In this document: positions 1,422 to 44,891 of the stretch, one piece after another
Numbering within the stretch: position 1 is the stretch's first letter
How the letters are laid out: each line of letters begins with the position of its first letter
Source of the DNA: a virus
Taxonomy: Duplodnaviria; Heunggongvirae; Uroviricota; Caudoviricetes
Length of the DNA: 44,891 bases
Strand: one strand, 5' to 3'
Virus record (IMG/VR): IMGVR_UViG_2802429240_000008
The notes under the pieces: model-generated
The model's input: only the letters and a program-made list of their open reading frames with translations
What the model was told of the DNA's origin: nothing
Database searches by the model: none
Translations under genes and position numbers: made by a program

Positions 1422-3893
1422 TTAAAAATCAGCCTGATTCGGGATCAGTTTTTGCCAGATAGCTGAAACGTATTTTGCCTGGTAACGGGCGTCATCAAGT
1501 GCATTATGGCGCTCACCTTCGAATGGGATAGCAGTTCTGGCATCGAAGTCTATGGCTTTCCCCAGCTCAACGATTGTGCGTACATCGCGATCGTTGTGGT
1601 AGCGCCACGGGCAGGGGATCCCCTGTCGTTCGTATGAACGGCGTAAAATCACGTTGTCGAAGTTGGCTCCATTTCCCCAGACCTGGACAAAAAATTCACC
1701 GGAGTTTTCGTCGATAAATTCCCGCAATTGCAGTAGTGCATCATCTAACGGAATTTCATCGGTCAGAAGGGCAGATTGCGTCTCACGTGATTGCTTAAGC
1801 CACCATTTAATGACGTCACGATCAATGACTCCGCCAGCAGTATTCAGATCGATGGTCTTGCTAAATTCCGGCCCCATATCTCCGGTTTGTGGATCGAAAA
1901 ATATTGCGCCTATTGAGATAATCGGGGCATCGGGATTTTTTCCCATGGTTTCAAGGTCGATCATCAGATGAATCCCCGCTCTGCTGGTGGATGTGAGATT
2001 ATGATGACTGTTCGCCTTAATTAAGGGATCTGACGCCTCGCCAGTTTCACTATCGCTGGCATGATGCTGATTGCCGCCAGGGTTCTCCTTGTGCTGATGT
2101 GCAGTACCTTCCATTTCCTCCGGATCATTTTCCTGAACTTCAACCTGATTCTCTTCATCGAATGTTTCCTGGTATGTTGCGTCGCCCATCACCGCGCCAC
2201 AATCAGGGCAGCTACCGCCGCCGGTCTGACCGCAGGCGGTGCAGGCTTTTTCCGGCTCCTGTTGCGCTACTGGTTCAACCTGTTTCGTTTCTGGCTCGTT
2301 TTGTTGCGCATTTGGGCTGTTTTGTTCCGTTTTCTGGTCGTTCTGTTCCGATTCTTGCTGGTTCTGGTTTACAGAATCGCGGGTTTCAATCCCCTTCACC
2401 CATTTCGGATCATTCGGGTCGCTAATCCCTGCAACAAATTCTCCGCGAGAGGCAGCAAGCAACTTATCGGCGTCAGGCTGGCTGATATTGGCTGCCTGCA
2501 TAATTTTGTTTACTTCCTCAGCGGTAACTTTTACCGGCTCTGGTTGTGCGGTCGTGTCAGATGCACCAGTATTTTGTTGTGAACCTGAGTATGTACCGTT
2601 TTTGCGGGCAAAATATTCTTCTTTCGTGATTTCAGTAGCCCCTGCAGTCAGCGCCTTATTCAGACCAGAAAGTTTGTTTGCGCGACCATATTTTTCGCCA
2701 TCCTTATCTGTGAAGAGGAAGTAGAACGGCCCCTCACGCTCTACAGATGGTTCGACTTCCACTTTGCATTCGGTTTTTTCGTTGTCCGGAATTGCCGTTT
2801 CCACTGCATCAGTTTCTGGTACTGGCGACGAGAGAGTATCAGTTGCGCTCTGATTTGTTCCTTCATCTTCAAACACGCCCTTTGTAGTCAGGTATTCAGT
2901 AATGTATTTGTTCAGTGCCACAGGGTCTTTGTGAATGTCGATCGGACGTTCACGGACAAGGCCAAAAATAGTCTGGCGGTCGTAGCGAAGGGCATCAGGC
3001 TGTTTGCGCATTGATGCCGAGATACGCTTCCAGTCTTCGCGGTCGTTGTCGATAACTTCATTTTTTGCCCAGCGATGGATGCTGCCGTCAATGTTTCCGG
3101 CATCAATGTCACCAGGCCACAGAGCGTAGGCCAGTTCATCATCCAGTGTTTTCCATGTCTGTTTGTATTCGCGACGAATGGTGGCAGTGGCTGGGGGGAT
3201 TTTCGCTACTGAGTTTTCAGTGTTCTGCCGGTTGACTCTGGCGCAGGCAAGATCAACAACAGACGTGTATTTCCCGGTTTCTTTGCGTTCGGCTTCGCGA
3301 CGTTTTTTCCAGGTGCGTAATTCTGTCTGGATCTCAGGCCATTTTGCACCCGGCTTACATTTATGTTTAACCCACCCGATGGCGAGCAGCTTAAGCTCTG
3401 AATACATGACGTTAACTTCAGGCATTTTCATCAATGCCTCAACGATATGCCCGTCGAATGTTGCCATGTCCTCCTGCAGTAATTCCTGAGCACTAATCAC
3501 CATATCAACGGTGATGTTTTCACATGTACCGAACTTAACCAGGACCGCGTTCTGTACTTCAAGTGACAGCTTGTCAAAATTGACGTTCATCGGATCGGAT
3601 TCTGGTTCGACCGGAATAAAGGAAGCGGATTCCTCATCCCAGCGGTTTTCCTGCATATATTCGGTATCCCAGGAGTCGATAGCAGGACGGGGCATGCCGG
3701 GTTTATCCTCGCAGACAAGAAATTTATAAGCGCAGTCCTGAGCAGCCGGATATTGCTCCAGGAATTGCCAGGTAAATTTGGCACGGGCGCGGCGTTCGTC
3801 ACCGGCTTCAATGGCAGTGGCTACAGCAACTGCACCTTCTTCCTTTATTGCCTGTTCGTCCGGAATGGCGGCGCAAATAAAGACTTTACTCAT
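1422..3893 (-). CDS. RecE-like exonuclease (823 aa): RecE-type N-terminal/central region fused to a C-terminal DnaQ-like DEDDh 3'-5' exonuclease domain
   Basis: Central segment (DKLLAASRGEFVAGISDPNDPKWVKGI...ACTACGQTGGGSCPDCGAVMGDATYQETFDEENQVE) matches my memory of Rac RecE; C-terminal part has DEDDh motifs (MIDLETMG, WGNGANFDNV, HNALDDARY); ATG at 3891-3893 with upstream GAGG. Confidence 0.75.
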   Translation of the reverse strand: MSKVFICAAIPDEQAIKEEGAVAVATAIEAGDERRARAKFTWQFLEQYPAAQDCAYKFLVCEDKPGMPRPAIDSWDTEYMQENRWDEESASFIPVEPESDPMNVNFDKLSLEVQNAVLVKFGTCENITVDMVISAQELLQEDMATFDGHIVEALMKMPEVNVMYSELKLLAIGWVKHKCKPGAKWPEIQTELRTWKKRREAERKETGKYTSVVDLACARVNRQNTENSVAKIPPATATIRREYKQTWKTLDDELAYALWPGDIDAGNIDGSIHRWAKNEVIDNDREDWKRISASMRKQPDALRYDRQTIFGLVRERPIDIHKDPVALNKYITEYLTTKGVFEDEGTNQSATDTLSSPVPETDAVETAIPDNEKTECKVEVEPSVEREGPFYFLFTDKDGEKYGRANKLSGLNKALTAGATEITKEEYFARKNGTYSGSQQNTGASDTTAQPEPVKVTAEEVNKIMQAANISQPDADKLLAASRGEFVAGISDPNDPKWVKGIETRDSVNQNQQESEQNDQKTEQNSPNAQQNEPETKQVEPVAQQEPEKACTACGQTGGGSCPDCGAVMGDATYQETFDEENQVEVQENDPEEMEGTAHQHKENPGGNQHHASDSETGEASDPLIKANSHHNLTSTSRAGIHLMIDLETMGKNPDAPIISIGAIFFDPQTGDMGPEFSKTIDLNTAGGVIDRDVIKWWLKQSRETQSALLTDEIPLDDALLQLREFIDENSGEFFVQVWGNGANFDNVILRRSYERQGIPCPWRYHNDRDVRTIVELGKAIDFDARTAIPFEGERHNALDDARYQAKYVSAIWQKLIPNQADF

Positions 3894-35979: not shown

Positions 35980-38900
35980 ATGGGTAAAGGTAGCAGTAAG
36001 GGGCATACCCCGCGCGAAGCGAAGGACAACCTGAAATCCACGCAGCTGCTGAGTGTGATCGATGTCATCAGCGAAGGGCCGATTGAAGGTCCGGTGGATG
36101 GGTTAAAAAGCGTGCTGCTGAACAGTACGCCGGTGCTGGACAGTGAGGGGAATACCAATATCTCCGGTGTCACGGTGGTGTTCCGGGCAGGTGAGCAGGA
36201 GCAGACTCCGCCGGAGGGGTTTGAATCCTCCGGCTCCGAGACGGTGCTGGGTACGGAAGTGAAATATGACACGCCGATAACCCGCACCATCACGTCGGCA
36301 AACATCGACCGTCTGCGTTTTACCTTCGGTGTGCAGGCACTGGTGGAAACCACTTCAAAGGGTGACCGGAATCCGTCGGAAGTTCGCCTGCTGGTTCAGA
36401 TACAGCGTAACGGTGGCTGGGTGACGGAAAAAGACATCACCATTAAGGGCAAAACCACCTCGCAGTATCTGGCCTCGGTGGTGGTGGATAACCTGCCTCC
36501 GCGCCCGTTCAATATCCGGATGCGCAGGATGACACCGGACAGCACCACAGACCAGCTGCAGAACAAAACGCTCTGGTCGTCATACACCGAAATCATCGAT
36601 GTGAAACAGTGCTACCCGAACACGGCACTGGTCGGCGTGCAGGTGGACTCGGAACAGTTCGGCAGCCAGCAGGTGAGCCGTAATTATCATCTTCGCGGGC
36701 GCATTCTGCAGGTGCCGTCGAACTATAACCCGCAGACGCGGCAATACAGCGGTATCTGGGACGGAACGTTTAAGCCAGCATACAGCAACAATATGGCCTG
36801 GTGTCTGTGGGATATGCTGACCCACCCGCGCTACGGCATGGGGAAACGTCTTGGTGCGGCGGATGTGGACAAATGGGCGCTGTATGTCATCGGCCAGAAT
36901 TGCGACCAGTCGGTGCCGGACGGTTTTGGTGGCACGGAGCCGCGCATCACCTGTAATGCCTGGCTGACCACACAGCGTAAGGCGTGGGATGTGCTCAGCG
37001 ATTTCTGCTCGGCGATGCGCTGTATGCCGGTATGGAACGGGCTGACGCTGACGTTCGTGCAGGACCGACCGTCGGATAAGGTGTGGACCTATAACCGCAG
37101 TAATGTGGTGATGCCGGATGATGGCGCGCCGTTCCGCTACAGCTTCAGCGCCCTGAAGGACCGCCATAATGCCGTTGAGGTGAACTGGATTGACCCGGAT
37201 AACGGCTGGGAAACGGCAACAGAGCTTGTGGAGGACACGCAGGCCATTGCCCGTTACGGTCGTAACGTCACGAAGATGGATGCCTTTGGCTGTACCAGCC
37301 GGGGACAGGCACACCGCGCCGGGCTGTGGCTGATTAAAACGGAGCTGCTGGAAACGCAGACCGTGGACTTCAGCGTGGGCGCAGAAGGGCTTCGCCATGT
37401 ACCGGGTGATGTCATTGAAATCTGTGATGATGACTATGCGGGGATCAGCACCGGCGGGCGCGTGCTGGCGGTGAACAGCCAGACCCGGACGCTGACGCTC
37501 GACCGTGAAATCACGCTGCCATCCTCCGGTACCACGCTGATAAGCCTGGTTGACGGAAGTGGCAATCCGGTCAGCGTGGAGGTCCAGTCCGTCACCGACG
37601 GCGTGAAGGTAAAAGTGAGCCGTGTTCCTGACGGCGTTGCAGAATACAGCGTGTGGGGGCTGAAGTTGCCGACGTTGCGCCAGCGCCTGTTCCGCTGTGT
37701 GAGTATCCGTGAGAACGATGACGGCACGTATGCCATCACTGCCGTGCAGCATGTACCGGAAAAAAAAGCCATCGTGGATAACGGGGCGCACTTTGACGGC
37801 GACCAGAGCGGCACGGTGAATGGTGTCACGCCGCCAGCGGTGCAGCACCTGACTGCCGAAGTCACCGCAGACAGCGGGGAGTATCAGGTACTGGCCCGCT
37901 GGGACACGCCGAAGGTGGTGAAGGGCGTGAGTTTCCTGCTTCGCCTGACCGTGGCAGCGGATGACGGCAGTGAGCGGCTGGTCAGCACGGCCCGGACGGC
38001 GGAAACCACATACCGCTTCAGGCAGCTGGCGCTGGGGAACTACAGGCTGACAGTCCGGGCGGTAAATGCGTGGGGACAGCAGGGCGATCCGGCATCGGTA
38101 TCGTTCCGGATTGCCGCACCGGCAGCGCCGTCTCGGATTGAGCTGACACCGGGCTATTTTCAGATAACCGCCACGCCGCATCTTGCGGTTTATGACCCGA
38201 CGGTACAGTTTGAGTTCTGGTTCTCGGAAAAACGGATTGCGGATATCAGGCAGGTTGAAACCACAGCCCGCTATCTTGGCACGGCGCTGTACTGGATAGC
38301 TGCCAGTATCAATATCAGGCCGGGCCATGATTATTATTTTTACGTTCGCAGTGTGAACACCGTTGGCAAATCGGCATTCGTGGAGGCTGTTGGTCAGCCG
38401 AGTGATGATGCTTCCGGCTATCTGGATTTTTTCAAAGGAGAGATAGGGAAAACCCATCTGGCTCAGGAGCTGTGGACGCAAATTGATAACGGTCAGCTTG
38501 CGCCTGACCTGACTGAAATCAGGACGTCCATTACGGATGTCAGCAATGAAATCACGCAGACTGTCAATAAGAAACTGGAAGACCAGAGTGCGGCAATCCA
38601 GCAGATACAGAAGGTTCAGGTTGATACAAATAATAACCTGAACAGCATGTGGGCTGTGAAGATGCAGCAGGTGCAGGACGGACGCCTTTATATCGCGGGC
38701 ATCGGTGCCGGTATTGAGAATACGCCAGCAGGAATGCAGAGTCAGGTGCTGCTGGCGGCAGACAGGATTGCGATGATTAATCCTGCGAATGGCAACACAA
38801 AGCCGATGTTTGTTGGTCAGGGCGATCAGATATTCATGAACGAAGTGTTCCTGAAATATCTGACGGCTCCCACCATTACCAGCGGCGGTAATCCTCCGGC

Positions 38901-39462
38901 ATTTTCCCTGACACCGGACGGGCGGCTGACGGCGAGAAATGCTGATATCAGCGGTAACGTGAATGCGAACTCCGGGACGCTCAACAACGTCACGATAAAT
39001 GAGAACTGTCAGATTAAGGGGAGACTGTCAGCCAACCAGATTGAAGGCGATATTGTCAAAACGGTCAGCAAGTCTTTCCCCCGCACGAGCACTTATGCCA
39101 GCGGCACCATCACGGTAAGAATCAGTGATGATCAGAAATTTGATCGGCAGGTCATGATACCGCCAGTGTTGTTCCGTGGTGGTAAGCATGAGAATTTCAA
39201 CAGTAATAACCAACAGTCATACTGGTATTCAACCTGCCGGTTAAGAGTGACCCGCAATGGTCAGGAGATTTTTAATCAGTCCACGACGGATGCTCAGGGC
39301 GTATTTTCCTCGGTTATAGATATGCCTGCCGGACAGGGGACGCTGACACTGACATTCACCGTATCTTCATCAGGAGCGAATGACTGGACACCAACAACCA
39401 GTATCAGTGATCTGCTGGTTGTGGTGATGAAGAAATCCACAGCAGGTATCAGTATCAGCTGA
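35980..39462 (+). CDS. J: Central tail fibre / host specificity protein J (1160 aa)
   Basis: Size and position as lambda J; N-terminal two-thirds has the conserved tip-attachment architecture, C-terminal region divergent; GAGGA RBS. Confidence 0.9.
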
Positions 39463-39480: not shown

Positions 39481-39507
39481 GGCGTCAGAAATGACGCCTT
39501 TTTTTAT
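39481..39507 (+). terminator. Rho-independent terminator after J
   Basis: ggcgtca-gaaa-tgacgcc followed by ttttttt. Confidence 0.7.
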
Positions 39508-39529: not shown

Positions 39530-40129
39530 ATGCGTAAACTTTATGCCGCCATTTTGTCCGCAGCCATTTGTCTGGCCGTATCCGGTGTGCCTGCATGGGC
39601 GTCTGAACATCAGTCCACGCTGAGCGCGGGGTATCTTCATGCCCGGACCAACGTTCCCGGCAGCGATGATCTGAACGGGATTAACGTGAAATACCGTTAT
39701 GAGTTTACGGACACACTGGGGATGGTGACGTCATTCAGCTATGCAGGAGACAAGAATCGCCAGCTTACCCGTTACAGCGATACCCGCTGGCATGAAGATT
39801 CCGTGCGTAACCGCTGGTTCAGCGTGATGGCGGGGCCGTCTGTGCGCGTGAATGAATGGTTCAGCGCGTATGCGATGGCGGGTATGGCTTACAGCCGTGT
39901 GTCGACTTTTTCCGGGGATTACCTCCGCGTAACTGACAACAAGGAGAAAACGCACGATGTGCTGACCGGAAGTGATGACGGTCGCCACAGCAACACGTCT
40001 CTGGCGTGGGGGGCTGGCGTGCAGTTTAACCCGACCGAATCCTTGGCCATTGATATTGCTTATGAAGGTTCCGGCAGTGGTGACTGGCGCACTGACGGTT
40101 TCATCGTGGGTGTCGGTTATAAATTCTGA
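39530..40129 (+). CDS. lom: Lom-like outer-membrane beta-barrel protein (Ail/Lom/OmpX family)
   Basis: [41 protein letters not shown]...[10 protein letters not shown]: signal peptide, alternating beta-strand pattern, C-terminal aromatic; appears nearly identical to lambda Lom from memory. Confidence 0.9.
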
Positions 40130-40193: not shown

Positions 40194-42596
40194 ATGGCAG
40201 TAAAGATTTCAGGTGTACTGAAAGACGGTGCAGGTAAACCGGTACAGAACTGCACAATCCAGCTGAAAGCAAAACGTAACAGCACCACGGTGGTGGTGAA
40301 CACGCTGGCCTCAGAAAATCCGGATGAAGCCGGGCGTTACAGCATGGATGTTGAGTATGGCCAGTACAGCGTCACCCTGCTGGTTGAAGGTTTTCCGCCT
40401 TCACATGCCGGGACCATTACCGTCTATGAAGGTTCCAGACCAGGTACGCTGAATGATTTTCTCGGTGCCATGACGGAAGATGATGTCATGCCGGAGGCAT
40501 TGCGTCGTTTTGAGGAAATGGTGGAAGAAGCGGCACGCAACGCCGAAGCCGCCTCTCAGAGCGCAGCGGCGGCAAAGAAATCCGAAACGGCTGCGGCATC
40601 ATCGAAGAACGCGGCGAAAAGCTCAGAAACGAATGCAGCTAACAGCGCCCAGGCGGCAGCGGCCTCACAGACTGCATCGGCAAACTCCGCGACAGCAGCC
40701 AAAAAATCAGAAACCAACGCGAAAAACAGCGAGACAGCAGCAAAGACGAGCGAAACCAACGCAAAGTCCAGCCAGACGGCAGCGAAGACCAGCGAAACGA
40801 ATGCCAAAGCCAGTGAAACTGCGGCGAAAAGCAGTCAGGCTGCAGCAGCCGAAAGCGAGAGCGCGGCAGCCGGTTCTGCGACTTCAGCAGCCGGATCAGC
40901 AACTGCTGCGGCTAACAGCCAGAAAGCTGCGAAGACGAGTGAAACTAACGCAAAGTCCAGCCAGACGGCAGCGAAGACCAGCGAAACGAATGCCAAAGCC
41001 AGCGAAACTGCGGCGAAAAGCAGTCAGGATGCAGCAGCCGAAAGCGAGAGTGCCGCAGCTGGTTCTGCAAGTGCGGCGGCTACTTCTGCCACTGCATCAG
41101 CCAACAGCCAAAAAGCAGCAAAAACCAGTGAAACCAACGCACAGGCGAGCGAAACAGCGGCTGCGAACTCAGCGAAAGCATCGGCAGCAAGCCAGACGGC
41201 AGCTAAAGCAAGTGAAGACGCAGCCAGAGAGTATGCAAGCCAGGCAGCAGAGCCGTATAAATATGTCTTACAGCCGCTGCCTGATGTGTGGATACCGTTT
41301 AACGATTCACTGGATATGATTGCGGGCTTTTCGCCATCATATAAAAAGATTGTTATTGGTGATGATGAAATAACAATGCCTAGCGATAAGGTTGTTAAAT
41401 TTAAACGAGCGTCGAAAGCAACCTATATTAATAAGGCGGGGATGCTGACAGAGGCTGCAATCGATGAAGCACGATTTGAACGCAACGGCCTGCTTATTGA
41501 AGGGCAGAGAACTAACCTGCTAATCAATTCAACCAATCCGACTAAATGGAACAAGTCGTCAAATATGATCTTAAGTGCATCAGGTGTAGATGATTTCGGA
41601 TTCCAGTACGCAAAATTTACATTAAAACCAGAAATGGTAGGGCAAACTTCATCGATTAACATAGTAACCGTTTCTGGCAGTAAAGGTTTTGACGTAACAG
41701 GCGGAGAAAAGTATGTAACCGTATCATGCAGAGTGCAAAGTGGCACTCCAAATTTAAGATGTCGATTACGATTTGAAAACTATGATGGTTCTACCTACAC
41801 ATTCTTAGGTGACGCTTACTTAAATACGACAGATTTATCTATTGATAAGACGGGGGTGGCCGCTAATCGCATTACTGCTAGGGCTGTTAAAGATGAAGCA
41901 AGCAAATGGATCTTTTTTGAGGCGACAATTAAGGCACTTGATACAGAAAATATGATAGGTGGAATGGTTCAGTATACCCCGGCAAAAGGAGTGGGCACTG
42001 GCGCGGATGATTATATTTATATTGCGACCCCTCAAGTTGAAGGTGGGGCGTGCGCTTCATCGTTTATTATAACAGGCGCATCCCCTGTAACACGCGCCAG
42101 CGATATTGTAACGGTCCCCATTTCTCTAAACTGGTGCAATCCCGCTATTAGTTCATTAGCAGAAGTTAATACCAATTGGGATGAATCGCCAAACAAAGAA
42201 GGTAGCGCACGTATTCTTAATATTTCCACTACGGGAGATACAACTGAAATTGCAGATGAAAGTTATATGTATTTGGGATATACATCGTTGGGAGCACGCG
42301 CAATCATTACAAATGGTAAAGGCACTAAAACAGAATATAAAAGTGTTGTAGAACGACCAGAGAGAAAATGCATTATCGGCTTTAGATTCACAGAAAGTCG
42401 AGAGTTGTGTGTTGTGGTTAACGGTAATATTGGTGCTAAGGCAGTTTCTCCTTATAAAAAACACAAATATACAGGAGGTTTCATTAATATTGGTGGTCAA
42501 TCATCATCCGGCAACCGTCACCTATTTGGACACGTTCGAAATCTGCGTATTTGGCACAAGGCATTGACTGATGCCCAGATGGGGGAGTCAATCTAA
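40194..42596 (+). CDS. stf: Side tail fibre protein (Stf-like, 800 aa) with lambda-Stf-like N-terminus, repetitive Ala/Ser/Thr/Lys-rich shaft and a non-canonical C-terminal LamG/ConA-like domain
   Basis: MAVKISGVLKDGAGKPVQNCTIQLKAKRNSTTVVVNT... matches the lambda Stf N-terminus as I recall it; C-terminus ends ...FGHVRNLRIWHKALTDAQMGESI, typical of LamG-like jellyroll domains. Confidence 0.85.
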   Translation: MAVKISGVLKDGAGKPVQNCTIQLKAKRNSTTVVVNTLASENPDEAGRYSMDVEYGQYSVTLLVEGFPPSHAGTITVYEGSRPGTLNDFLGAMTEDDVMPEALRRFEEMVEEAARNAEAASQSAAAAKKSETAAASSKNAAKSSETNAANSAQAAAASQTASANSATAAKKSETNAKNSETAAKTSETNAKSSQTAAKTSETNAKASETAAKSSQAAAAESESAAAGSATSAAGSATAAANSQKAAKTSETNAKSSQTAAKTSETNAKASETAAKSSQDAAAESESAAAGSASAAATSATASANSQKAAKTSETNAQASETAAANSAKASAASQTAAKASEDAAREYASQAAEPYKYVLQPLPDVWIPFNDSLDMIAGFSPSYKKIVIGDDEITMPSDKVVKFKRASKATYINKAGMLTEAAIDEARFERNGLLIEGQRTNLLINSTNPTKWNKSSNMILSASGVDDFGFQYAKFTLKPEMVGQTSSINIVTVSGSKGFDVTGGEKYVTVSCRVQSGTPNLRCRLRFENYDGSTYTFLGDAYLNTTDLSIDKTGVAANRITARAVKDEASKWIFFEATIKALDTENMIGGMVQYTPAKGVGTGADDYIYIATPQVEGGACASSFIITGASPVTRASDIVTVPISLNWCNPAISSLAEVNTNWDESPNKEGSARILNISTTGDTTEIADESYMYLGYTSLGARAIITNGKGTKTEYKSVVERPERKCIIGFRFTESRELCVVVNGNIGAKAVSPYKKHKYTGGFINIGGQSSSGNRHLFGHVRNLRIWHKALTDAQMGESI
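40740..41140 (+). repeat. Tandem direct repeat, 2 x 189 bp (63 codons) plus partial flanking copies, inside stf
   Basis: Units 40740-40928 and 40929-41117 are near-identical (gcaaagtccagccagacggcagcgaagaccagcgaaacgaatgccaaagccag...); they encode repeated AKSSQTAAKTSETNAKASETAAKSSQ segments. Confidence 0.8.
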
Positions 42597-42877
42597 TGAA
42601 AGATTTAACACTCAAATTTGCCGACAGGGCCGACTTTTCGGCCTTTATGGAGAGTATTGGCTATTATGATGACGAGTCGATGCAGGATGATATTCTTATT
42701 GACGTGATAGGTAACGTGTACAAAGAAACCGGAGAACTGACTGAAGATGGCGAACCGGTATGTGTTAAGGAAGATGGATATTTTGTAAACGTGCGCATCA
42801 TTAATGATGCAAAAAAATCGTCAATATTCGATGAATACGCGGTTGTAGTTGAACATCAACTTCGTGGCTGGATGTGA
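42596..42877 (+). CDS. Hypothetical protein (93 aa) translationally coupled to stf; candidate fibre-tip accessory protein or chaperone
   Basis: ATG overlaps the stf stop (TAATG); acidic; occupies the position usually held by a tail-fibre assembly gene but does not look like lambda Tfa. Confidence 0.5.
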   Translation: MKDLTLKFADRADFSAFMESIGYYDDESMQDDILIDVIGNVYKETGELTEDGEPVCVKEDGYFVNVRIINDAKKSSIFDEYAVVVEHQLRGWM

Positions 42878-42886
42878 GGGAGACAA

Positions 42887-43591
42887 ATGGCTACATCGAC
42901 AGTAATTCCAGGAGACATCACCACGTTAAAGGGAGATGTCAGTAAAGCCAAGGAAGATATTTCCTCAATTAACGGAAAAGTATCAACGCTTCAGGCTGAT
43001 ATGACCAGTGCAAAGCAGGATATCAGCACCAGATACACAAAAACTGAAGTTGATAATAAGCTGAAAAACAAACTGGAAGTGAACGCTCTGGAAAGCGGTC
43101 GTTATGGTGGAGATTTTTACCCGTTGACTGGCCGTGAAGCGTTTTATTTGTGGGGATTGGGCACGACTACAGCGGCGGCAAACCTTTATCTTAATCCTGA
43201 CCCCGCAATTTCGTCTGTGCTGCGGTCAACATCGTCTATCCGCTATAAACATTCAGTAGAGACAATAGATTCAGAGCACGCCGATCTCATTTTCAGGATG
43301 CGCCCTGTGTGGTACAGGTCACAATGCGAAAATGACAGGCGTGACTGGGGATTCTACGGATTGATTGCCGAGGAAGTAGGAGAAATTGCCCCTCAGTTTG
43401 TACACTGGCGACCAGCTAACGAAGATGATGCACCGGAAGCTATTTCCAGCAATGGCCTTGTTGCCGAAGGTGTAATGTACGAACGTCTGGTTGTTCCACT
43501 GATTCACCATATCCAGAAGCTGACTGAAAGAGTTGATGAACTTGAGTCAGAATTAAAGTTGTTATCCGTTTCCCGAAGCGATATCGGATAA
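42887..43591 (+). CDS. Coiled-coil protein with a C-terminal peptidase S74-like intramolecular chaperone domain (234 aa)
   Basis: GAGGGAGA RBS; N-terminal heptad-like region; C-terminal SSIRYKH ... YGLIAEEVGEIAPQFV ... YERLVVPLIHHIQKL resembles the S-x-x-R-x-K and GFIAQEV motifs of tail-spike chaperone domains. Confidence 0.6.
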   Translation: MATSTVIPGDITTLKGDVSKAKEDISSINGKVSTLQADMTSAKQDISTRYTKTEVDNKLKNKLEVNALESGRYGGDFYPLTGREAFYLWGLGTTTAAANLYLNPDPAISSVLRSTSSIRYKHSVETIDSEHADLIFRMRPVWYRSQCENDRRDWGFYGLIAEEVGEIAPQFVHWRPANEDDAPEAISSNGLVAEGVMYERLVVPLIHHIQKLTERVDELESELKLLSVSRSDIG

Positions 43592-44327: not shown

Positions 44328-44891
44328 TCAGAGTCGCATCAATCGTTCCACCAGTTGTTCTTTACGGGCAACGATCCACCCGTGTTGTTCCAGATAAAAT
44401 TTAAACCGTTCCAGAGTGCATACCATCGCATCGGCGGGTACTTTTTCCGTGAAGTCGACCTGACCGTGTTTATCGAAGTGGATCAGTAATGTGCATCCAT
44501 TATTTTCGTTGAGGGAGTTTTGTGCTGCTGGTGGTTGTTTTTGGCTGAAATAACAGTCTTCGAGTTTTTCGAACACTTCCCACGCCTGATCGGTTTCGAG
44601 CATTTTTGCGTGGCGGGCTGCTCCGCGTTCTGTCCATAGGATGAGGGAGCGGGCTTTGGGAGATATGGGGTTTTGTGACTTACTTAAAGTAAGTCGCAAA
44701 TTTTTTAATTCTTCACCCGATGCTTTAAAAAAGTGCTTTCCTTCGACAAAACGCTCTTTGTTTCTGGTGAAGTTAACCTGGATATTCAGAATTTCGGTGC
44801 CATAAAGCTGCGCCAAAAGTTCGGTGGTAATAACAGGGATCTGGTTATGGGTGATCGGGGAGAGAGTTTCAACAGAGATTTGAGTGGCCAT
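44328..44891 (-). CDS. ORF6N-domain protein (antirepressor/DinD-like, 187 aa)
   Basis: ...RSLILWTERGAARHAKMLETDQAWEVFEKLED... resembles ORF6N-type domains as I recall them; ATG at the very end of the window, so the upstream region is not visible. Confidence 0.55.
   Translation of the reverse strand: MATQISVETLSPITHNQIPVITTELLAQLYGTEILNIQVNFTRNKERFVEGKHFFKASGEELKNLRLTLSKSQNPISPKARSLILWTERGAARHAKMLETDQAWEVFEKLEDCYFSQKQPPAAQNSLNENNGCTLLIHFDKHGQVDFTEKVPADAMVCTLERFKFYLEQHGWIVARKEQLVERLMRL

Follow-up and report, generated by a model that had tools for sequence, protein, structure and literature searches.

Phage tail fibres such as T4 gp34/gp37, P2 H and Mu S combine a conserved attachment end and a repetitive shaft with an exchangeable distal receptor-binding module. 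Recombination within their shaft repeats, which are mostly beta-structured, produces in-frame hybrids, and the repeats thereby act as points of module exchange. Streptococcal M proteins, which are dimeric bacterial fibrils, gain and lose whole-heptad blocks by intragenic homologous recombination, such that rod length changes while the register is kept; this size variation is frequent and immune-selected. Closest to the locus described here are the side tail fibres (Stf) of lambda and Ur-lambda. Lambda Stf follows a single Ala/Ser heptad register from approximately residue 127 to 343. Fibres of the lambda type are homotrimers and number four per virion. In the Ur-lambda side fibre, the N-terminal domain sits at the gpV/gpM junction as a collar, and residues 102-393 make up the proximal coiled coil, which is trimeric and rod-like by cryo-EM (PMC12617516).

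We analysed a stretch of 44,891 nucleotides (the window) from a virus of the Caudoviricetes, IMG/VR record IMGVR_UViG_2802429240_000008. We consider it very probable that this window encodes an in-frame nine-heptad (63-aa) tandem duplication in the alpha-helical coiled-coil shaft of a lambda-type Stf, and that the copy number of the duplicated unit is changed by recombination. The gene and its neighbors are laid out as follows.

35980-39462, plus strand: gpJ central tail fibre gene, a 1160-aa ORF (Pfam gpJ domains on an identical contig; annotated as gpJ in the orthologous E. coli locus)
39530-40129, plus strand: lom, 199 aa as called in identical contigs, with the ORF list start at 39491 (PF06316 Ail_Lom, E 2e-119)
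40194-42596, plus strand: stf, side tail fibre gene, 800 aa, the length also called in identical contigs
40194-40475, plus strand: N-terminal collar domain of Stf, residues 1-94
41493-42098, plus strand: distal "phage head spike fiber" (GTA_spike_fiber) domain of Stf, residues 434-635 (NF048003, E 1.6e-16)

The ORF list opens stf at a GTG codon (40188, giving an 802-aa form), and we number residues from the ATG at 40194. A Pfam profile search placed the PF08400 N-terminal domain at residues 3-133 of the GTG-start form (E 7.7e-68), and Stf residues 1-800 aligned to positions 1-793 of the 793 in phrog_1419 ("tail protein"), that is, over its full length. Using phmmer, we found that residues 1-94 match a solved 94-aa PDB chain, 9e7m_Ta, named "Tail fiber protein" (E 2.2e-49), a chain that we interpret as the collar of Ur-lambda Stf. 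J and lom immediately precede the gene, in the order found in lambda. Together, the PF08400 domain, the collar match and this position agree with the original prediction that the gene encodes a side tail fibre, and support its assignment, on sequence grounds, to the lambda-type Stf proteins of lambdoid prophages.

The likeness to the Stf of lambda and Ur-lambda comprises the homologous collar (residues 1-94), the position after J and lom, and an uninterrupted register of Ala at heptad position 1 and Ser at position 4. Beyond the first heptads, however, the tract is not orthologous to that of lambda, and lambda lacks the 63-aa duplication. The distal parts differ as well: lambda Stf ends in a gp37-like distal coil and an OmpC-binding tip, whereas the distal half of the protein encoded here matches NF048003. 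In lambda the gene downstream is tfa; here a 93-aa ORF of unknown function lies downstream, and the ORFs following stf correspond to phrog_1361 (unknown function) and an S74-domain protein, not to Tfa. Judged by these matches, Stf is a mosaic that belongs to the lambda-type side tail fibres through its N-terminal half only.

The shaft and its repeats occupy the following positions.

40530-41243, plus strand: 34 uninterrupted heptads (A-x-x-S-x-x-x), a predicted alpha-helical coiled-coil shaft, residues 113-350 (heptad table, 7-aa autocorrelation and AF2 helix)
40740-40928, plus strand: unit 1 of the 189-bp tandem duplication, heptads 11-19 (Tandem Repeats Finder, pairwise comparison and heptad table)
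40929-41117, plus strand: unit 2 of the duplication, heptads 20-28 (same three sources)
40740-40865, plus strand: high-identity head of unit 1, identical to 40929-41054 at 119 of 126 positions

Position 1 of the heptad is Ala in 31 of the 34 repeats and position 4 is Ser in 32. Amino acid self-identity within the tract is ~0.5 at every lag divisible by 7 and 0.1-0.2 at all others, and the overall composition is 37% Ala, 20% Ser, 11% Thr, 9% Lys and 8% Glu. The degenerate Ala/Ser/Thr/Lys array that had been described around the duplication is therefore present, and is slightly longer than claimed. An uninterrupted 7-residue periodicity with two core positions is the pattern of a coiled coil, with a core that is atypical in that Ser is polar. 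Consistent with a helical structure, an AF2 model places helices at residues 99-224 and 233-352 (pLDDT 72-89); this is a single-sequence monomer model of moderate overall confidence (mean pLDDT 65) that cannot show a trimer. In the model the helix folds back at residues 225-232, a hairpin that we treat as a probable artefact of modelling the monomer. A similar misfolding of full-length lambda Stf was obtained with AF3 (PMC12617516).

As in side tail fibres, a long proximal coiled-coil rod follows a short linker, with 34 heptads, a predicted helix and the register seen in lambda orf-401. The tract could instead be a beta-structured or disordered Ala/Ser-rich linker whose repeats make no defined contribution to length. 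In keeping with this idea, Ser is unusual at the core position of canonical coiled coils, some relatives carry indels that are not whole heptads, and searches of Pfam and NCBIfam returned no structural family over the tract, the matches to SMC, DNA polymerase III tau and NlpC/P60 proteins being compositional and far below cut-offs. We nevertheless regard a linker of this kind as very unlikely, given the strict 7-residue register across all 34 repeats, the predicted helix, and a homologous lambda Stf tract in the same register whose Ur-lambda counterpart is a rod-like trimeric coiled coil in both the model and the images (PMC12617516). Nor did Pfam Phage_fiber_2 or collagen-like beta-structured repeats match the tract at E <= 0.01. 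Unlike the mostly beta-structured shafts of T4, P2 and Mu, this shaft appears to be an alpha-helical heptad coil. The comparison supports a correspondence between the tract and the Ur-lambda proximal coiled coil, in which case it too would presumably be trimeric.

Within this coil, Tandem Repeats Finder reported a single array (40725-41141, period 189, 2.2 copies, 85% matches, score 624). Both units are 189 bp long, begin at a codon boundary of stf (phase 0), and encode 63 aa, exactly nine heptads. They are identical at 164 of 189 nucleotides (86.8%) and 58 of 63 amino acids. This figure stands well clear of the repetitiveness of the tract itself. At other lags that are multiples of 21 (21-315 bp), the best 189-bp block identity was at most 62%, and when the order of the 21-bp heptad units was shuffled, none of 20,000 shuffles reached 164 of 189 (maximum 134). 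Of the 21 codons that differ between the units, 16 do so synonymously and five non-synonymously, a ratio that, along with a third-position bias of substitutions relative to an E. coli orthologue, supports purifying selection as the force that probably maintains the stf frame.

Identity between the units is unevenly distributed, at 94% over the head (the first six heptads) and 71% (45 of 63) over the tail (the last three). The original prediction thus had the coordinates, period and phase of the units exactly right, yet was too generous in calling them near-identical. The longest exact match, 56 bp (40758-40813 and 40947-41002), falls within the head, which is likely to be the substrate of unequal exchange. 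One simple duplication leaves the contrast between head and tail unexplained; mosaic exchange or gene conversion must be added. As a separate matter, we considered concerted evolution of the unit heads and rejected it: identity between paralogous heads within a genome (119 and 115 of 126) does not exceed that between orthologous heads (120 and 123 of 126), a pattern that gives no indication of continuing gene conversion.

Repeats of this size can mis-assemble from short reads, and many database relatives are "partial" proteins on short contigs, which raises the question of whether the two-unit arrangement reflects collapse or false expansion during assembly. This is extremely improbable. The units differ at 25 of 189 positions and are not easily confused, and an identical 800-aa protein is present in three NCBI assemblies, in two of which we examined the gene and found it to differ by 0 and 1 nt. 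Moreover, the region that spans the repeat (40480-41330) measures 851 bp, and this length recurs in 1001 of 5426 complete E. coli genomes and 53 of 80 IMG/VR loci. The worry about an artefact that accompanied the original prediction is thereby answered, at the level of assemblies, by the agreement of independent ones, and the duplication can be taken as a genuine feature of a prophage fibre allele that is very common in E. coli.

The same gene occurs in a range of E. coli prophages and phages (IdasGreatGrand, PhiR63_1, Tritos, 2G7b and ev243 among them), where PGAP names the product "prophage tail fiber N-terminal domain-containing protein" and the assignment to phrog_1419 is shared. The complete E. 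coli genomes contain roughly 17,000 stf places in all. The gene is matched over 80% or more of its length by 60 of these genomes, with top identities of ~95-96%, and several isolated phages share its N-terminal half, both units included, at 94% identity. These alleles vary in unit and heptad number and also in their distal module; breakpoints of the mosaic lie at query positions 895, 1180, 1247 and 1329. Comparison of copy number among related prophages, the check proposed with the original prediction, recovered both one-unit and two-unit alleles. The allele of phage IdasGreatGrand lacks exactly 63 aa, or one unit. In this phage and in E. coli AVS0655 and CB209, the single unit follows unit 1 at diagnostic sites 3, 12 and 18 and is mostly of unit-2 type from site 123 onwards, which places the exchange point of these chimeras between unit positions 19 and 122. 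E. coli MSB1_4I, judged from its protein, is likewise a one-unit allele whose tail is of unit-2 type. E. coli FFFEB2 has retained a pure unit 1. The existence of two kinds of one-unit allele, chimera and pure unit 1, implies at least two independent deletions. Seven one-unit clusters, on different N-terminal haplotypes, were present among the 120 best protein clusters, and one locus with one unit among the 80 from IMG/VR.

Further deletions of whole heptads at the same junctions remove 15 heptads (ev243 and 534-bp spans in E. coli), 28 (L078), one, two or four. In a few relatives the in-frame indels are not whole heptads (-4, -5, -12, -30 and -41 aa), which is unexpected for a strict coiled coil. 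The one candidate for an allele longer than the two-unit form, an 872-bp span in E. coli SCU-306, turned out to be a pseudogene with many frameshifts, and we set it aside. When complete E. coli genomes were searched with a synthetic three-unit DNA query, the 30 best rows were all two-piece, 851-bp (two-unit) matches. Three-unit alleles were likewise absent from the 120 best-ranked protein clusters and from the 80 loci of IMG/VR, although rare cases could be masked in these searches by the ranking and by clustering at 90%. The earlier claim that the repeats allow both expansion and contraction is thus upheld for contraction, the one-unit chimeras being as unequal exchange would leave them, while expansion beyond two units was not seen; expansion rests solely on the existence of the duplication itself.

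Variation of this sort could also be read as that of a contingency-type hypervariable locus, with programmed, high-frequency switching of fibre length within populations. Copy number does vary among relatives, the one-unit form arose at least twice, and the chromosome of E. coli CB209 carries both forms, albeit in different prophages. However, the units are long, only 87% identical and share at most the 56-bp exact match, unlike the short or near-perfect units of slippage-prone contingency repeats. Very close relatives did not vary in copy number (the near-identical prophage copies in the two independent assemblies, 0-1 nt apart in the gene, are of equal length), the two-unit length is retained across alleles 4-6% diverged (~1000 genomes), and neither a diversity-generating retroelement nor an invertase was identified among the scanned ORFs adjoining stf. 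Programmed switching therefore seems most improbable; the two-unit form is the dominant, stable allele, and length change is rare rather than frequent.

In the mechanism that we favor, a rare recombinational change of copy number within a coiled-coil shaft, Stf would be a trimer that, by analogy with Ur-lambda, sits on the tail tip by its N-terminal collar, followed by a short linker, the long coiled coil and a variable distal receptor-binding part. For a coil of 34 heptads with Ala and Ser at its two core positions, we infer a length of ~35 nm, of which the duplication would add ~9 nm; a one-unit fibre would be shorter by that amount, and adsorption might be affected. Misaligned homologous recombination or replication slippage between the similar heads, with their 56-bp exact stretch, could delete one unit, and the same exchange could in principle add one, leaving the reading frame and the heptad register intact. 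The likeness to streptococcal M proteins is in this mode of working only, as the two are not homologous and the two-unit form of Stf, in contrast to the M proteins, is stable.

A more ambitious proposal is that the nine-heptad block is a selected length quantum, with lambdoid phages tuning the reach of their side fibres in ~9 nm steps to the thickness of O-antigen or capsule, and with unit losses that are adaptive and not neutral noise. If so, the recurrent losses of a unit, which arose independently (two kinds, several haplotypes), would reflect adaptation to different hosts, but we consider this proposal unlikely. A search of the literature yielded the Ur-lambda structure paper but no specific description of this repeat or of variation in the number of Stf heptads. 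The feature is nonetheless of an ordinary, already known kind for such fibres, and it matters little beyond annotation. The relatives do provide a natural shaft-length series on the same attachment domain (one or two units; one, two, four, 15 or 28 heptads fewer), which could be used to test side-fibre length against adsorption or to pick in-register fusion points for Stf chimeras.

Three additional ORFs overlap the tract.

40480-41319, plus strand: Arg-rich ORF of 279 aa in the +1 frame, a non-coding by-product of the codon composition of the tract
40556-40807, minus strand: antisense ORF from the ORF list, judged spurious
40639-40902, minus strand: antisense ORF from the ORF list, judged spurious

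Across the tract, position 2 of the stf codons is never T. The +1 frame consequently cannot hold a stop, whatever its content, and it contains none. Relative to the E. coli orthologue, substitutions in the stf frame are 25 synonymous and 13 non-synonymous, as against 8 and 30 in the +1 frame, and 25 of the 38 fall on the third position of stf codons; this is not the constraint expected of a dual-coding frame. The stop-free composition and the substitution pattern together bear out the earlier judgement that the Arg-rich frame is spurious, and support the view that it is an artefact of composition. The length of the +1 ORF could be taken to favor real overlapping genes, in this frame or on the antisense strand, as could the presence in the lambda reference of orf206b, a similar antisense ORF annotated in the same tract. 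Given the way in which the frame is kept open, its substitution pattern and a predicted product of low-complexity Arg, Gln, Pro and Lys, we find such genes scarcely credible. The tract accounts for all three of these ORFs, and the similar orf206b still stands in the lambda reference.

The feature is an in-frame duplication of nine heptads in the predicted coiled-coil shaft of a very common allele of the lambda-type side tail fibre. The fibre gene, stf, occupies one long ORF (40188/40194-42596, +), the product of which begins with the Pfam domain PF08400 'Prophage tail fibre N-terminal' (E 7.7e-68), matches the solved chain 9e7m_Ta 'Tail fiber protein' over residues 1-94 (E 2.2e-49) and matches phrog_1419 from end to end. 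As in lambda, stf lies downstream of the gpJ gene (1160 aa here) and then lom. A feature of this kind is well known and the allele is already in databases; there is nothing unexpected in it.

40530-41243, + strand: heptad tract, aa 113-350, 34 heptads without interruption
40740-40928, + strand: unit 1, 189 bp, 63 aa, codon phase 0 of the stf ORF, heptads 11-19
40929-41117, + strand: unit 2, 189 bp, 63 aa, codon phase 0 of the stf ORF, heptads 20-28

Each unit comprises exactly nine heptads, with heptads 11-19 recurring as heptads 20-28. Tandem Repeats Finder reported a single array at 40725-41141 (period 189, 2.2 copies, 85% matches, score 624), together with weaker periodicities of 21 and 42 bp, and the units agree at 164/189 nucleotides and 58/63 residues, confirming the 189-bp tandem duplication first described; 16 of the 21 codons that differ are synonymous, and the longest exact match spans 56 bp (40758-40813 = 40947-41002). 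At no other multiple-of-21 lag tested (21-315 bp) did any 189-bp block exceed 62% identity, and none of 20,000 order shuffles of the 21-bp units reached 164/189 (maximum 134). The duplication thus stands well above the background of the tract. The original description of the units as near-identical is apt for the head, the first six heptads (119/126, 94%), but not for the tail, the last three (45/63, 71%), and one simple duplication does not account for this disparity. P0055-type alleles, in which unit 2 has a tail resembling that of unit 1 and is one heptad shorter, point to mosaic exchange within the tract. Comparison of the units of the window with those of E. coli 2D gave no sign of ongoing gene conversion. 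Orthologous units (182/189 and 181/189 identical) are closer than paralogous ones (164/189), so the duplication is older than the divergence of these alleles.

The broader degenerate array that was said to surround the units is present as the 34-heptad tract, in which position 1 is Ala in 31/34 heptads and position 4 Ser in 32/34; position 2 is Lys or Ala, position 5 Glu, Ala or Gln, position 6 mainly Thr, and position 7 Ala or Asn. The gpStf of Ur-lambda, a trimer by cryo-EM/cryo-ET, consists of a collar domain (1-91), a flexible linker (92-101) and a proximal coiled coil (102-393), followed by a hinge and then a distal part (PMC12617516). Lambda orf-401 has the same single Ala/Ser register over approximately residues 127-343, and a single-sequence AlphaFold2 model of Stf residues 1-402 places helix at 99-224 and 233-352 (pLDDT 72-89). 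Taken together, this layout, register and modelled helices argue that the tract is the proximal coiled-coil shaft of Stf. With the usual coiled-coil rise of ~0.148 nm per residue, the computed length is about 35 nm for the tract and about 9.3 nm for each 63-aa unit. The modelled monomer helix folds back at aa 225-232, as would be expected when a trimeric rod is modelled as a monomer. Three heptads of the tract contain Gly: AAGSATS and AAGSATA in the tail of unit 1 (40866-40907, aa 225-238, heptads 17-18) and AAGSASA in the unit-2 tail. The fold-back coincides exactly with the unit-1 Gly site; it is probably an artefact, though the site could be a softer spot in the rod.

Several lines of evidence indicate that the two-unit arrangement is genuine and not, as had been raised as a possible refutation, an assembly artefact. 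Three NCBI assemblies encode the 800-aa protein without any change, and the stf genes of the two examined show 0 and 1 nt differences from the window sequence. Of 5426 complete E. coli genomes, 1001 carry the 851-bp region 40480-41330 at unchanged length (~94-97% identity in sampled rows), and 53 of 80 IMG/VR loci with the same N-terminal domain have the two-unit length. The two-unit form is therefore the stable, dominant allele and is not hypervariable.

The proposed comparison of copy number among relatives revealed one-unit alleles, including that of phage IdasGreatGrand, which lacks exactly 63 aa. At 20 diagnostic sites, which consistently distinguish unit 1 from unit 2 in two genomes, the single units of IdasGreatGrand, E. 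coli AVS0655 and E. coli CB209 match unit 1 at sites 3, 12 and 18 but, from site 123 on, mostly match unit 2. Such a chimera is what unequal exchange in the high-identity head would be expected to produce, and a single unit of the same kind is found, at the protein level, in E. coli MSB1_4I. In E. coli FFFEB2 the single unit is unit-1-like at 20/20 sites and reflects a distinct deletion, with end-points that we infer to lie within the repeated 'NSQKAAKTSETNA' boundary. Because chimeric and pure unit-1 forms both occur, at least two independent contractions must have taken place, and the one-unit forms appear to be natural derivatives generated by unequal recombination. Among the 120 best protein clusters, seven have a single unit, and these sit on differing N-terminal haplotypes. 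E. coli CB209 (NZ_CM144249.1) carries both a two-unit stf (1525014-1527413) and a one-unit stf (1328823-1329484), apparently in separate prophages, and the pair could serve as substrates for inter-prophage recombination.

Other alleles that share these junctions are short of whole heptads: 15 in phage ev243 and in 534-bp spans of E. coli genomes, 28 in L078, one in 830-bp spans, and two or four in others. Across fibres with N-terminal domains at least 94% identical, the tract can be as short as 55 aa or as long as 372 aa. The repeat thus permits recombinational length change. Of the predicted expansion and contraction, contraction is borne out by the one-unit chimeras and whole-heptad losses, whereas no three-unit allele was found in the 30 best rows of a DNA comparison with complete E. 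coli genomes, in the 120 best protein clusters or in the 80 IMG/VR loci. The only longer span considered as an expansion was a decayed pseudogene and was rejected. Five proteins (P0044, P0111, P0045, P0110 and P0120) have in-frame tract indels that do not amount to whole heptads (-4, -5 extra, -12, -30 and -41 aa); these would disrupt the heptad register and could be either discontinuities that the coiled coil tolerates (compare PMC4786415) or a mark of decaying prophage genes. In E. coli SCU-172 (NZ_CP054353.1, 2510040-2513216) the orthologous stf is broken by an IS1A element.

The Arg-rich alternative frame (40480-41319) is, as had been judged, spurious. A stop in the +1 frame needs T at stf codon position 2, and T is absent from that position across the whole tract; the +1 frame, with 0 stops, is thus necessarily open, and the ORF exists as a side effect of composition. 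Over 40480-41319, the window and its E. coli 2D orthologue differ by 38 substitutions, 25 of them at third positions of stf codons; the 38 comprise 25 synonymous and 13 non-synonymous changes in the stf frame, versus 8 and 30 in the +1 frame. The reference sequence of lambda continues to list 'orf206b, hypothetical protein' (NC_001416 20147-20767; L004 1648-2268, -) antisense in the equivalent heptad tract of orf-401. With an Ala/Phe/Ser/Val-rich product, it looks like a composition-driven ORF of the same kind as window ORFs 40556-40807 (-) and 40639-40902 (-). In P0119, a database Stf relative, the protein shifts to the Arg-rich +1 frame after '...NSAQAAA', continuing 'RPRRLHRQT'; a frameshift in the tract therefore yields a long read-through product and not a quick stop.

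The window (1-44891) is a nearly complete lambdoid prophage, also encoding replication initiator/replication genes, terminase, portal and tape measure protein.

1-1131, - strand: integrase
1422-3893, - strand: RecE-like exonuclease, 823 aa
24708-26927: protease/major-head fusion, 739 aa
Stf aa 434-635 (distal half), + strand: GTA_spike_fiber-type domain (NF048003)
42596-42877, + strand: 93-aa ORF, phrog_1361 (unknown function), ATG overlapping the stf stop (ATGA)
42887-43591, + strand: 234-aa protein, Peptidase_S74 intramolecular-chaperone domain at aa 116-172
44328-44891, - strand: anti-repressor ORF reaching the right end of the window

Unlike lambda's, the distal half of Stf has a GTA_spike_fiber-type domain, and stf is followed not by tfa but by the 93-aa ORF, which had zero Pfam or NCBIfam matches and, from its tfa position, is a candidate chaperone for the distal fibre module. 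The 234-aa protein aligns to the C-terminal end (positions 1147-1384/1385) of phrog_3299, a very long fibre family, and is either a stand-alone short fibre tip or the leftover of a second fibre gene. For both stf (GTG 40188) and lom (ATG 39491), the start of the longest ORF is probably not the true one. In identical contigs, in the E. coli annotation and in lambda, stf begins with the ATG that yields MAVKISG (800 aa), and lom has 199 aa in the identical contigs, corresponding to a start at 39530.
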